Assembly: GCA_951406725.2 (NCBI GenBank)
Contig: OX597825.1
Coordinates: forward strand, 53,630,001-53,694,000
Origin: Octopus vulgaris
Taxonomy: Eukaryota
Reading direction: 5' to 3'
DNA: 64,000 nucleotides
A program made the translations under genes and the position numbers. The notes under the pieces are model-generated. The model was not told the DNA's origin. It made no database searches and was given only the letters and a program-made list of their open reading frames with translations. Of this stretch, positions 11,015 to 62,735 are shown piece after piece. Within the stretch, counting starts at the first letter, position 1; every line of letters begins with the position of its first letter.

Positions 11015-11090
11015 CAGGTCAATGCCTGGAATTGAACTCGAAATCTTGGAGTTAGCAGCACGCGCCTTTAACCACTACGCCATATGGGCA
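11015..11090 (-). other. tRNA(Ser)-like Pol III cassette of the PLE-associated family (pseudo-tRNA)
   Basis: TGGCGTAGTGGTTAA (A box), CTGCTAA anticodon-like loop, GAGTTCAATTCC (B box); homologous to 62022-62095 and 62526-62599. Confidence 0.75.
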
Positions 11091-11269
11091 TAATAATAAT
11101 AATAATAATGATAATAATAATAATAATAATAATAATAATAATAATAATAATAATAATAATAATAATAATAATAATAATAAGAAGAAGAAGAAGAAGAAGA
11201 AGAAGAAGAAGAAGAAGAAGAAGAAGAATAGTAGTAGTAGTAATAATAATAATAATAACAACAACAACA

Positions 11270-11420
11270 ACATCGAAAAATACCTTAAGAATTAGAAACC
11301 AGGTTCGAAATTTCCCAAAGACACCTGATGAAGGCTGGTGGGTATGCCAACCGAAACGTTGTGTTAACAACAAACAAGATGAGGACAAACATGCGTCAAT
11401 TGTAAATAGTGTAAATAATG
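11270..11420 (+). mobile_element. Penelope-like pLTR 3' segment carrying a hammerhead
   Basis: Homologous to 61875-62002 (-) and 62620-62720 (+), which adjoin a PLE GIY-YIG ORF end. Confidence 0.75.
11320..11365 (+). ncRNA. Minimal type-I hammerhead ribozyme (C3-G8 core)
   Basis: gacac-CTGATGA-a-ggctgg(8 nt)ccaacc-GAAA-cg-TT-gtgtt; palindromic ACGT stem III, one mismatch in stem II. Confidence 0.75.
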
Positions 11421-11562
11421 AAAACAAGAATCCTTGTAACATTTATACCAGATCACTAGGCTCGAGTTCCATTCCATCATGCTCTGTGTGGGTATTAGAT
11501 TTAATATATCACCCAACTTACCATCACCAACTGGCGTATTGTATGATGTCCATGCTGTTGCA

Positions 11563-11865
11563 GTGGAGGCACATGGCCTAGTGCTTAAAGCAGCGGACTC
11601 GCGGTTGAAGGATCGCGGGTTCAAATCTCAGACCGGGCGATGTGTGTGTGTTTATGAGCGAAACACCTAAGCTCCACGCGACTCCGGCAGAAGGTAATGC
11701 CGAACTTCTGCTGACTCCTTCGCTACAACTTTCTCTCACCCTTTCTTCCTGTATCATACAGTTCACCAGCGACGGACCGGCTTCCCGTCCAGGTGGAGAA
11801 CATATACGCCAAGAAAACCGGGAAACCGGCCCTTATGAGCCACGCATGACTCGAGAAGGAACATG
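11563..11865 (+). mobile_element. tRNA-derived SINE, second family, sharing its 3' tail with the 5.5-kb SINEs
   Basis: GTGGAGGCACATGGCCTAGTG..GGTTCAAATC head; tail CATATACGCC..AACCGGGAAACCGGCCC..ATGAGCC. Confidence 0.8.
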
Positions 11866-14800
11866 CTGTTGGAAGTCCTCGGGTCAGTTCTCTGGTTTTA
11901 AGATAACTCTCTCTCTCTCTCTCACTTTCTCTCTCACTCTTTCTTTCTGCCTCTCTCCTTTCTGTCTCTCTCATTTCTGTCACTGTGTCTCATATATATA
12001 TACACACGCAAATACACACACACACATACACACACACACACAAACACACACACACACACACACACACACACACACACACACACACTAACACACACACACA
12101 CACACACACACACACACACACACACACACACACACACACACACACACACACACACATGAGTTTTTGGTGATTGTGTGTGTGCATTTGCATATGTGTGCAT
12201 GTCACGGAGGTTCTGAAGCAACCCATAACGCTTTTCTTGTTACAACGATGAATTAAAATATATGCCATACAAAATACTGAGATTTGAGGAAATATGCTCT
12301 GCTTTACAAAGAATATTCTTCCTACATAACAATTCCTATTGTCTTCATAGTAAAAATAGGGTCCAGTCTTGTTCACAGTGCAATATTATGGTATGAACAG
12401 GTTTATTCAGTTCCTCGTATCCGCAAAATATGTTTGTAAATACAACAGTTTAACACAAACTTAGTACAGAAAGTAATACTATTAATCAGAATGTTTGATA
12501 AACCCCGCTGACTCAAACTATGGACATTTTGATAATACATACAAAATAGGCAAAGAAAAATCTTTGTGAAGAACTAGACTATTGAAGTCAATGATGATTA
12601 CCCATGATGCCGCGTTTCAGTTCAGTTGTTCGTGAAAAGATGGTGGAAACTGTTCATGGATTTAATCATGATTTTCTGTGATCTTTCATTTGGAAATCCC
12701 AGCAACCTTTAACGGTGCTCTCCACCAGAAAATATAATGCAATTTTCATTCAGAATATTGTGATACACTCACTCAGTCCCCACCTCTCACTCCCACTCTT
12801 TCGCTTTCTCTCTCTCTTTCTCACATTCTCTCTCTATGTTTCTCTCTCATACTCGCTCGCTCACTCACACACACAGATACACACACAGACACACACACAC
12901 ACACACACTCATATATAGACACTTACGTATACACATACACACACAAATACACATGTACATATGTTCATAAATATATATACATACACAAACATACACACAC
13001 ATATATATCTAATTATACATAGACACACATTTATATACGTCAGAGAATATACATACATACATGGTTGCACACAGAGACGCAGAAACACAAGTGTTTGAGA
13101 GCTGGCACACATACTGTTTATTTATTTATTTATTTATTTATTTATGTATTTATGTATACACATATATGTATTTGTCGTACGTAAGTATATCAATATGTGC
13201 ATATATATACATATACAAATATTACGAGTGTTAACACACACACACACATGTACATATACATATATATTAAGAAAGAGGGAGGTGAAGGACACATTCATAA
13301 ACATACACACACACGTATATATATATATATATATATATATATATATAATTATATGTATACACAAACATATATATATATACACATATATATTATATATATA
13401 TATATATATATATATATATAAGAGAGAGAGAGAGAGAGAGAGAGAGAGAGATATACACATGCATATACATATATATATATAAATATATGTGTGTATGTAT
13501 GTATGTAATGTATGTATATGTTTCTCCGTTTATGAAGGCAGGTATATCTGTTTTTGTGTGCGATATACAAATACACACTTACAGCGTATATATATATATA
13601 TATATATATATATATATATATATATATATATACACATATATATGAGTTTATGCTACCTTGGTGATTTAATTAGTGCAGGAAATGTTTGTACTGAAAGTTT
13701 GGTCACTTGGGTATAAGAGATCTGTAGTGCCGTTGTTTAGAACTAGTCATTTACTCTCTTCCTCCCCCTCTCCTTTCTCCTTTCTCTAACCCCCTCTCAC
13801 ACTTTATCTCTCTTTCTCCCTCTCTCGTACACTCTCTTTTCCTTTCTTTCATTTAGATCTCCCTTCAAGTAAAATACTGGCTGGTAGGTTGTTTTGCATA
13901 TAGCTCTTGCACATGTTTTTGAAAGACAGGAATTCGTAAAACTGTTGTAACTTGGACGTAATATAATACATAGATATACATATTGTAAACAATATTATGC
14001 TAATAGCGATACGTTCAAATGGATCACATTGTGATGCTAAAATATGGTAAGAGATAAAAATACTTCAGTATAGTATGAGTATACAGGGAAGATCCATGTA
14101 TCGTCAAATCTTTTCGGTGCTACATCGTGAAGTTTGAGAAAAATGCTTGGAAAGTTTGATGTCACACAAAAGAAATATATGGCAATTGAACACAGTGGTG
14201 TGTAACACAGAATCGACACATGGTTACAAATATCATTGTTGTATATTAAGTCCAGAAAGAAAAGTGTGTTTTTGGTGGATTGTCTAAAAAAAAGTATTGT
14301 TCCCCAACATAGCAATCCAATACAGAAATTAGCAATGGCAGATACTGTGTGATATATGACAGATAATAGAGAGAAATTTACGCAAAGAAACAGAAATAAG
14401 AAATGACGTTTAGATATGCTATTGAGAATTTGTTATTTCGACAGGAAATGCAGAGATAAAGCTGCAAAGAAACAGGAACCGAAGATACGAAACTAGTAAC
14501 AGCTGTTACATGGTGGAAGACATCACTCAATTAAACAAAAGATTAATAATATAGTGCACGAGATAACGTCGGCATGCTTGTTGATATAAGTGTAGGTGTA
14601 TATGCATGATGTGGATTAATCTGTTCACACACACAAACAAGCGAACATATATATATATATATATATATATATATATATATATATATATATGTATATATAT
14701 ATATATATATATATATGTATATATATGTATATATATATGTATATATATATACACACGTGGGCCATTTCACGCTTAGCCTTGGCTGGCTTCAGGTATATTC

Positions 14801-61036: not shown

Positions 61037-61699
61037 TCTATAATAATAAATGGCAAGTTTGTGTGTTTATGAATTTGTTATTTTAATTCCTCCGAAACTA
61101 TCCAACAGACCTTGATGAAACTTGACGCGTGTGAGGGGCTTATGCCCATGCGGTCACTTACGCACTGTAAACTTTTTAAAAATCGATTTATAAACACCAT
61201 CGATTTTTAAAAGTCGTAAAAATTCAACATTTTCCGCACAAGCCACCGTGACATCAATTTGACGAAAAATGCCGGAATTTGACCAAAAATGTTTCATGGG
61301 TATAAATAGACAACTTATTAACGGCAATCTATTTAGCATAAGTTCATTCTTCATTTCAATGCAAATTGTTTGGATTTGCTGAGAATCATTATTTCAATAC
61401 GTTGTTTTAATTCCACAACGTTTCAGGTTCTGATTAGGTAAGACCATTTTATTTCTCAAGCAAAATTTAGGCATTTTGCGCACTAGCCGTCGTAACATCA
61501 ATTTCACGAAAACTGCCCCAAAGCGTAAAATTTCGCCATTTTACGCACATGCAGAAAAATGACGACGAAACGGGTTCGCTACCAGACTCTGCACATTTTT
61601 TCGTCAAGCTGGTCCTACCTATTAATATAGATTTAAAGTGTTTGAAAAATTCGAAATTTGACGGAAAATGTTTGATTTATTACCGTGTACTTCAACTAG
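61037..61699 (+). mobile_element. Non-autonomous Helitron-like element
   Basis: 5' TCTATAATAATAAATGGC..CTCCGAAACT..TTGATGAAACTT; 3' end ..GTACTTCAACTAG followed by T. Confidence 0.55.
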
Positions 61700-61874
61700 T
61701 GTTAACATATACATATATGTGTCTGCGTGTAAAGACATACTATAGAAATTTACATACTACAACAGATTATTACATCTTATAAATGAAGGCAGTATGATTA
61801 ATTCAATTCCGGAGTTGAAGCTATTATAACGTAGATCAATGTAATCTGGTATTGTTAATGGATCATGAGTGATA

Positions 61875-62316
61875 CATTATTTACTTTTGATGGATATTTG
61901 TCCTCATCTTTTTTGTAGTTAACACATCATTTCCGCTGATATACCTTCTAGCATTCATCAGGTGTCTTGGACTGGCTTCTCAGTCCTTAGGTATTTTTCG
62001 ATATTATTATTATTACTATTCAGGTCGCTGCCTGGAATCGAACTAGGAATCTTAGGGTTAGTAGCCCACGCTCTTAACCACTTCACCATATGCCCGTGGG
62101 CAATTTTTGAGTGAATCTTAATATTTTCCTATCCTTCCTTAATACCGGTTCCCATATGCTATTCGTATTTGCACTCGATCTGCATAGGAGGTTGTTGTGT
62201 CCTAGTATATATGCTGCTTGTTTTAGTTTTCGTATTTCCAGTGGTGTTCTCTGTCTATTATTTTAACTTCATCCCAAAGGAGGAGGAGGTCTCCATTTTT
62301 CCATATATGATCACTA
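61875..62316 (-). mobile_element. Penelope-like 3' end: GIY-YIG C-terminus, tRNA-like cassette, (TAA)n, HHR
   Basis: Minus translation SDHIWKNGD..LWDEVKIIDREHHWK/RKLKQAAYILGHNN..NSIWEPVL; tRNA-like 62022-62095; acac-CTGATGA..GAAA..gtgt at 61921-61966. Confidence 0.8.
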
Positions 62317-62332
62317 CCCCCCCCCCCTGTTA

Positions 62333-62735
62333 GATGAAGTTAAAATAATAGACACAGACCACCAGTGGAAATACGAAAACAAAAAGAAGCAGCCCATATA
62401 CTAGGACACAACAACCACCTAAGCAGACTGAGTGCAGTTACGAATAGCATATGGGAACCAGTATTAAGGAAGGATAGGAAAATATTAGATTTATAAGCGC
62501 TAAGATTCACTTCACAATTGCCCATGGGAATATGGTGTGGTGGTTAAGAGCGCGGGCTACTAACCCTAAGATTCCGAGTTCGATTCTATGCAGTGACCTG
62601 CGTAGTAATAATAATAAAAACACCCCCAAAATACCTTATGATGAAGGTTGGAAGGTATATCAGCCGAAACATTGTGTATACAACAAACTAGATGACAAAT
62701 ATCCGTCAAATGCACATAATTCATCATCTCTTAAA
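62333..62735 (+). mobile_element. Inverted second copy of the PLE-tRNA-HHR unit
   Basis: DEVKIIDTDHQWK/RKQKEAAHILGHNNHLSR..NSIWEPVLRKDRKILDL* (stop 62494-62496); tRNA-like 62526-62599; TGATGAAGGTTG..CAGCCGAAAC at 62639-62670. Confidence 0.8.

Follow-up and report, generated by a model that had tools for sequence, protein, structure and literature searches.

The stretch analysed here, hereafter the window, comprises 64,000 nucleotides of the Octopus vulgaris genome (contig OX597825.1, positions 53,630,001 to 53,694,000) and consists of microsatellite-rich, animal-type DNA (146 rows of tandem repeats), with a repeat composition that seems octopus-like, containing the broken open reading frames (ORFs) of retroelements. 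Its main features are five loci, designated L1 (11.0-11.4 kb), L2 (24.0-25.3 kb), L3 (37.4-38.2 kb), L4 (44.2-44.5 kb) and L5 (61.9-62.7 kb), at which inverted pieces of sequence with hammerhead-ribozyme-like motifs lie head-to-head, and which are considered below as probable insertions of Penelope-like elements (PLEs). The arms were compared with each other by self-BLAST and pairwise alignment within the window.

L3 is the locus with a recognizable protein. Rightwards of its junction, the frameshifted C-terminal end of a GIY-YIG endonuclease, from a PLE probably of Neptune type, truncated on its 5' side at the junction itself (37565..37838, plus strand), is followed by the 3' region of the element, a part of the pseudo-long terminal repeat (pLTR; 37839..38217, plus strand). 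Within the latter lies a minimal hammerhead (38124..38148, plus strand) with an A3-U8 core (AUGAAUA), a 5-bp stem I, a 2-bp stem II, the palindromic stem III ACCGGU and C17. The inverted left arm (37385..37564, minus strand), which includes a one-sided extension of ~45 bp, adjoins (TAG)n/(TA)n and has its own AUGAAUA hammerhead at 37529-37505, altered by two G-to-A changes at CpG sites, one of which is the loss of G12. For the 67-residue open stretch at 37564-37767, a search gave 161 relatives at E<=0.001, the best at 4.5e-14; among nine of these scanned against Pfam, GIY-YIG was found in eight and RVT_1 also in five, and three near-full-length relatives (724-747 aa) carry an ADKG motif. The CX2-5CxxC linker, a mark of Neptune and Nematis elements (PMC8557442), is present in 39 of the 50 relatives long enough to check and has been truncated away in L3 itself; the telomerase-like reverse transcriptase (RT) of some relatives is likewise missing from the L3 copy. 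At the level of sequence similarity, L3 is established as the carrier of a PLE GIY-YIG fragment, and neither tblastn nor a profile built from its relatives detected a further piece of PLE endonuclease in the window.

L3 also represents a family that extends well beyond this one insertion, and it is the only one of the five hammerhead-bearing families that the contig data cover. Parts of L3 occur in 20 of 24 listed sequencing runs, which come from 10 studies and bear four species labels; there was no RNA run among the listed runs with L3 sequence. When contigs from four runs, one per species label, were matched to 37565-38260 at 80% likeness, 2,924, 3,238, 2,261 and 1,201 contigs were obtained, and all 29 bins, including those of the 3' region, were covered in each of the four. 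The depth of these contigs is no measure of copy number; the family is plainly multi-copy. Contigs with loose ends before 37566 come from other copies that run on upstream into the ORF, and one opposite-strand joint of the family is listed in two runs.

L4 and L2 are likewise fold-backs. The left arm of L4 (44185..44387, minus strand) includes a one-sided extension of ~57 bp (44185-44241) that ends at (TA)33, and the right arm (44391..44534, plus strand), three bases away, ends at (TA)20. Both arms have a minimal hammerhead (44332..44367, minus strand; 44410..44445, plus strand) with a G3-C8 core (GUGAACA), a 7-bp stem I, a six-pair stem II, stem III AAUAUU and U17, and the predicted fold of the right-hand copy has z = -3.67. 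The arms of L2 (left, 24038..24610, minus strand; right, 24717..25325, plus strand), identified by self-BLAST and pairwise alignment, lie on either side of a central (TA)n of ~90 bp (24626..24716), and the right arm has a one-sided extension of ~52 bp (25274-25325) ending at (TA)20. Their hammerhead-like motifs (24180..24213, minus strand; 25111..25144, plus strand) read GUGAUGC, with a G3/G8 mismatch and C9. In the predicted fold (z -2.12) G3 pairs with C17; stem III, AGAACU, pairs at four of six positions. The L2 motif is likely inactive.

L1 and L5 hold parts of one further family. The left arm of L5 (61870..62301, minus strand) comprises, from the junction outwards, a broken ORF end, a tRNA-like module (62088-62035), a short (TAA)n and a decayed hammerhead (core at 61961). 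The same parts recur in the right arm (62310..62726, plus strand), with the tRNA-like module at 62533-62586 and a decayed hammerhead core near 62638. An 8-bp palindrome, CATATATG (62302..62309), forms the junction, and one frameshift is common to both arms. The core at 61961 is a CUGAUGA with decayed stems, and that of the other arm has become AUGAUGA after a small insertion. At L1, the left piece (11015..11089, minus strand), which is identical to the L5 left arm at 59 of 75 positions, contains a tRNA-like A box and B box (11082-11029, minus strand) and runs into (TAA)n at 10906-11014. The right piece (11090..11413, plus strand) begins with an expanded internal (TAA)n/(GAA)n and continues into the 3' end of the element; its match to the L5 element spans 11260-11413 (plus strand), and in the hammerhead part 108 of 132 positions are identical to the left arm of L5. 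Both the core listing and the full descriptor find here an intact minimal hammerhead (11325..11360, plus strand) with the canonical C3-G8 core CUGAUGA and stem III ACGU. The two L1 pieces correspond to separate but adjacent stretches of the L5 element, which in L5 lie in line and are split by the short (TAA)n, and the only complementary part between the pieces is their TAA/TTA runs; on these alignments, L1 consists of two parts of the L5 family that do not overlap and are set head-to-head. Beyond the left (TAA)n of L1 lies a retroelement fragment, at 10700-10905 (minus strand), and the remainder of the left arm may therefore have been lost. Situated, like the (TAA)n, after the ORF end and before the hammerhead, the tRNA-like module is reminiscent of schistosome promoter-plus-hammerhead repeats. 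ARAGORN recognized no tRNA gene; an internal Pol III promoter, or an old short interspersed element that became fixed in the element, is a possible identity for the module.

Homologous arms that are inverted and joined 5'-to-5' were recovered at four of the five loci, with aligned-base identities of 529/545 (L2), 114/119 (L3), 142/142 plus a few indels (L4) and 323/373 (L5). In every arm the hammerhead is close to the outer end; the arms are therefore joined by their truncated 5' ends and face outward. L4 and L5 are symmetric about the junction, with the 3-base spacer and the 8-bp palindrome, respectively, at their centres and a palindromic junction in both cases, whereas L3 is asymmetric, setting a short inverted left arm against a 650-bp copy. 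The one-sided extensions of L2, L3 and L4 are each present on a single arm only; at L1 and L5 an extension is not definable. The initial annotation had credited all five loci with two outward-facing arms joined in this manner, a description that fits L2 to L5 and does not extend to L1, the two inverted pieces of which are without common sequence. Likewise, the adjoining inverted and 5'-truncated copy that is a trait of PLE insertions is seen at L2, L3, L4 and L5, and at L1 only as non-overlapping inverted parts.

Additional inverted pairs were noted. A sixth fold-back, at 27918-28183, has 78 perfect pairs around six bases, a one-sided extension of ~104 bp and (TA)n at both ends; no descriptor used found a hammerhead in it, and it possibly belongs to a PLE family without the motif or is a copy truncated past the motif. 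Older inverted pairs, 69-85% alike, lie at 30968-31263, 39616-39977 and 42599-43800, the first of them with decayed hammerhead-like remnants near its outer ends.

Two accounts other than retrotransposition bear on this geometry. Near-perfect palindromes such as L4 and the 28-kb hairpin are what might be seen if the fold-backs were artefacts of assembly or chimeras of long reads. However, the arms of L2, L3 and L5 differ by 3-13% plus indels, the extensions are one-sided, and the opposite-strand joint of the L3 family occurs in independent runs, all of which leaves an artefact barely credible. For L2 and L4, it might also be supposed that they are non-autonomous DNA fold-back elements, akin to miniature inverted-repeat transposable elements (MITEs), or local inverted duplications, in which the motifs are incidental. 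Their arms contain no ORF remnant, the L2 core is mismatched, and flanking TA is also the target of Tc1/mariner-type elements. On the other hand, the one-sided extensions at L2, L3 and L4 give unequal outer ends, unlike the equal terminal inverted repeats that reach both ends of a MITE or DNA fold-back, and the L4 motif has every feature of a minimal hammerhead, for which shuffled sequence yields an expectation of ~0.03-0.06 per window. We consider this origin very unlikely.

The flanks of the loci likewise separate the families. Five of the ten outer ends are no more than 3 bp from an AT-rich array (the left ends of L1 and L3, the right end of L2 and both ends of L4), against a background in which 1.4% of non-array positions are within 5 bp of one. 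The array at the left end of L1 is that locus' own internal (TAA)n, and the right end of L3 adjoins a short (AT)6 that falls below the array threshold. Between the left end of L2 and a (TA)n array 367 bp away is another repeat (23672-24037), likely a later insertion at the edge of the element, with ends that we take to be Helitron-like. The right end of L1 is 155 bp from the nearest array, and the ends of L5 are 1,664 and 2,520 bp away. Because the (TAA)n of L1 and L5 is internal to the element, with the tRNA-like box pair on one side and the hammerhead on the other, it was rejected as a target site and does not count as a flank. Hence, the proposals that the loci adjoin (TA)n or (TAA)n and that several families share a microsatellite-targeted mode of insertion hold for L2, L3 and L4 and have to be withdrawn for the L1/L5 family. 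As a separate observation, made by eye only, similar short sequences in direct orientation flank L3 at 37208-37245 and 38290-38325.

Apart from the five loci, two solo hammerhead-like motifs have U in place of A at position 6 (A6U). The first, CUGUAGA (26504..26531, minus strand), belongs to an element whose 3' end at 26407 adjoins (TA)53; the second, CUGUCGA (50606..50631, minus strand), is ~72% alike to it. The corresponding copies (26407-26560 and 50465-50792, both on the minus strand) are diverged members of one family, have U6 in common and have 3' ends that adjoin (TA)n and (TAA)n, and self-BLAST found no inverted partner for either.

In total, the window contains 11 motif copies from five families; four copies (L1 right, L3 right and both arms of L4) are intact under the full descriptor. 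The left copy of L3 and both copies of L5 fall short of the minimal type-I set of stems I and II, GAAA, palindromic stem III and U16.1-H17. The estimate of roughly ten motifs in 64 kb is right for copies and too high for families or for copies that match the full descriptor. A Watson-Crick 3-8 pair together with U4, G5, A6 and A9 is found at L1 (C-G), L3 (A-U) and L4 (G-C), one family each, and it is in this reduced form that the proposed series of covarying cores survives. GUGAUGC was rejected as a member, because of its G3/G8 mismatch and its C at position 9, and the CUGUNGA motifs at 26531 and 50631 (U6) lie outside the five loci; these, like L2, are hammerhead-like only. Palindromic stems III are similarly confined to ACGU, AAUAUU and ACCGGU, the AGAACU of L2 being imperfect. 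Also rejected were the counting of both fold-back arms as independent motifs and the CUGAUGA sequences at 31160 and 7702, which under the final descriptors are without the proper order of stem II, GAAA and stem III.

Every hammerhead descriptor was composed only after the motifs had been seen, and rates were compared with block-wise dinucleotide shuffles. Within the window, this comparison, suggested by the initial annotation as a check, came out in favour of the motifs: the full descriptor gives four matches against a mean of 0.055 in 200 shuffles, of which none reached four (maximum 2). A stricter earlier set, which demanded a 4-bp stem II and hence missed the L3 motif, gives three matches against a mean of 0.03 (0 of 60 shuffles reached three). 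A looser descriptor gives 11 against 1.73 in the 200 shuffles, with three of its matches outside the five families and chance-like. Watson-Crick 3-8 pairs occur in four of the five families and in 100 of 346 shuffle matches (P about 0.03, by hand), and when the three families without C3-G8 are taken alone, P is about 0.2; the window by itself therefore lends the covarying series weak support. Single-strand folds favour L4 and L2, at the z values given above, and give no support for the A6U motifs or for L1 and L3. Two copies of the L3 motif folded together reach their minimum energy as the dimeric hammerhead, at -13.3 kcal/mol compared with -5.2 kcal/mol for two monomers.

Taken together, it is highly probable that the loci are 5'-truncated insertions of several families of endonuclease-bearing PLEs, demonstrated as such for L3 and presumed for the others, which kept the hammerhead at their 3' end; two-sided priming is the likely mechanism. 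According to this scheme, a dimeric RT-GIY-YIG protein would nick both strands of AT-rich DNA, and reverse transcription would be primed on either side, at positions internal to the element RNA. Because both cDNAs would start at the 3' end, both arms would carry the hammerhead and point outward; the use of two start sites would leave a short extension on one arm only, and joining of the truncated cDNA ends, in many cases at a short palindrome, would follow. Neptune-type families (L3 and probably L2 and L4) would land in (TA)n, and the L1/L5 family would carry its own expandable (TAA)n. For endonuclease-bearing PLEs, inverted 5'-truncated copies, a 30-40-bp tail and a preference for (TA)n associated with the CX2-5CxxC linker have been reported (PMC8557442), as have head-to-head palindromic junctions (PMC3846280). 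A Poseidon protein, a predicted dimer, both cuts and extends the two DNA strands with a preference for ATT, and two internal RT start sites span the tail (PMC11167929). In truncation, head-to-head inverted copy, palindromic junction, one-sided tail and (TA)n, the loci resemble the published insertions of Penelope/Poseidon, Neptune and Nematis (PMC8557442, PMC3846280). The inverted-pair pattern is ordinary, already published PLE biology and, by itself, changes nothing. The L1/L5 family differs from the published insertions in that a tRNA-like A/B-box module and its internal (TAA)n immediately precede the hammerhead.

Several observations pull in the opposite direction. The extensions in the window measure ~45-57 bp, compared with the published 30-40 bp (PMC8557442). 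Neither tblastn nor the profile from L3 relatives found an ORF remnant in the arms of L2 and L4 or at the A6U copies; for L2 and L4, the arms are short enough to sit wholly in the 3' region, and the absence is therefore to be expected. The L5 ORF end returned no scored relative in a Pfam scan and protein searches, and its Atlas leads are weak (0.79-0.80 to GIY-YIG clusters), another Atlas query being uninformative. We take this ORF end to resemble the C-terminus of a Penelope/Poseidon endonuclease. The PLE reading and the proposed link between motifs and PLE ORFs are secure for L3, through its GIY-YIG fragment; a PLE identity is suggestive for L1/L5, and for L2 and L4 it is their architecture that points to PLEs.

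The identity of the L4 arms at all aligned bases and the frameshift common to the L5 arms are accommodated equally well by snap-back copying, the self-primed or template-switch mode of the initial annotation, in which a single nick would give a single cDNA, the 3' end of which folds back at a palindrome or switches template, so that the second arm is a self-copy. Also in keeping with such copying are the start of the L4 arms at the same base across the 3-base spacer, the 78 perfect pairs of the fold-back at 28.0-28.2 kb, the CATATATG centre of L5, and the self-priming that has been inferred from palindromes of this kind (PMC3846280). L3 and L1 fit less well: they are asymmetric, and their arms have different starting points or no overlap. 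In vitro, moreover, the PLE protein extends both strands, and two start sites explain a one-sided tail (PMC11167929). Snap-back copying is accordingly a serious alternative, though one we consider less probable than not to have produced these loci. Young fold-backs of these families could separate it from two-sided priming.

The 3-8 core pair is where the window may depart from what has been described. Metazoan genomes contain hundreds to thousands of minimal hammerheads each, with opposite-strand pairs 100-700 bp apart, and the motifs of the window have the same CUGANGA-stem II-GAAA-palindrome-UH layout as the minimal type-I hammerheads of metazoan PLEs, including, at L1, L2 and L4, an extra base after position 9 (PMC4209133). 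In that work, the natural 3-8 covariation is U3-A8, with about 1,300 matches in Schistosoma; its Fig. S3, as far as legible, has C or U at position 3, without G3-C8, A3-U8 or U6, but the descriptors fixed the core, so the figure is no test of absence (PMC4209133). A second survey likewise describes natural 3-8 covariation, common 2-bp stems II, a low-activity A6C and dimers with palindromic stem III, but its text names only U3-A8 as a natural covariation, with no purine at position 3 (PMC3088659). The Anolis Poseidon element PAc, which also combines a pLTR hammerhead with a tail and AT-rich targets, provides a parallel, as the engineered double change C3G/G8C, which reproduces the L4 core, partly restores its cleavage; what was engineered in PAc is genomic in L4, where it is known from sequence alone (PMC11167929).

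A literature search for natural G3-C8 or A3-U8 cores found engineered cases only, which is a weak absence, as Lunse et al. 2017 and most subscription papers lay outside it; a separate search for cephalopod hammerheads had none in its top 20 results. Lunse, Weinberg and Breaker (2017) reportedly described ~150,000 small hammerhead variants associated with PLEs, with short stem III and cleavage as dimers. Natural cores with a purine at position 3 and a pyrimidine at position 8 may be new. A3-U8 is the majority form of its family in four runs, and G3-C8 is represented by the two identical arms of one insertion. Among the 40 best supported of the 129 variant rows of the L3 contigs, ~20 have a majority letter that differs from the window copy, none of them within the motif, so that A3 and U8 are the majority letters in all four runs; minority core variants are possible among the other 89. 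The in-motif rows among those 40 affect only loop II positions 38135 and 38136, and the change at 38135 converts the loop to GAAA. As engineered, G3-C8 works less well with C17 (PMC3884650), and in the window G3 goes with U17 (L4) and A3 with C17 (L3); these two cases hint that position 17 is co-adapted to position 3.

The swapped cores are predicted still to cut RNA; they keep a Watson-Crick 3-8 pair and are likely inherited, selected features of their families. A broader proposition, that PLE families of this animal lineage have explored all Watson-Crick 3-8 identities plus an A6U core, and that these are selected, active dimeric ribozymes which CUGANGA/UUGANAA descriptors miss and in which position 17 is co-adapted against 3-17 pairing, is a speculative one that we would sooner doubt than accept. 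Weighing against the main explanation given above are a contig form of the L3 family, in runs X1 and X7, with G at position 3, the minimum-energy dimers of L1, L2 and L4, which differ from the hammerhead fold, and the Rfam output, in which the matches listed included no hammerhead, only miRNA-type matches to hairpins and microsatellites. When metagenome contigs were scanned for the exact L4 and A6U patterns, no match was obtained.

RNA of the parent element would be cut by a dimer of hammerheads that belong to tandem copies on one strand, possibly with a protein assisting. The dimer model is restated in a review (PMC6765202), and the Poseidon hammerhead is protein-assisted; mutating it did not prevent insertion in vitro (PMC11167929). 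In the fold-back remnants, on the other hand, the arms are on opposite strands, and one transcript would be without the same-strand pair of motifs that a dimer needs; regardless of the behaviour of the parent element, these hammerheads are likely inert. This bears on the further idea that dispersed fold-backs supply the genome with a large stock of active non-canonical ribozymes, with functions for the host or the element. The 11 motif copies in 64 kb, four of them intact, and an L3 core that is constant across runs while loop II varies (40 best supported of 129 rows) are compatible with it. However, seven of the 11 copies fail the full descriptor, with L3 left and both L5 copies decayed, opposite-strand arms would presumably form a long hairpin in place of a same-strand dimer, published minimal motifs have no monomer cleavage and low dimer cleavage (PMC4209133), and the in vitro insertion just mentioned proceeds with mutant hammerheads. 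An active repertoire of this kind is unlikely, and for copies that are mostly decayed, with arms on opposite strands, the term 'ribozymes' put forward initially is too strong.

Should the A3-U8 and G3-C8 motifs prove to cleave, they would be a natural completion of a covariation series known mostly from mutagenesis, and whole families would have been missed by genome-wide counts of hammerheads. They would also be natural constructs for asking whether PLE hammerheads are selected for cleavage, a question that arises because cleavage is dispensable for insertion in vitro (PMC11167929).

Two other features of the window deserve mention. At 7436-7989, a direct repeat of ~78 bp, with its copies 477 bp apart, encloses the broken CUGAUGA at 7702. 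At 56900-58640, a broken element of the kind that has no long terminal repeats (non-LTR), with an RT domain at 57.5-58.3 kb that Pfam assigns to RVT_1, ends directly in a (TAA)n/(TGA)n run. We assume that this element and the retroelement fragment to the left of L1 are R4/Dong-like; in the one frame pair tried, that fragment did not align with the copy at 57-58.6 kb. Since the L1 fragment resembles the non-LTR element and adjoins the (TAA)n of L1, such elements may use the (TAA)n inside the L1/L5 family as a target.

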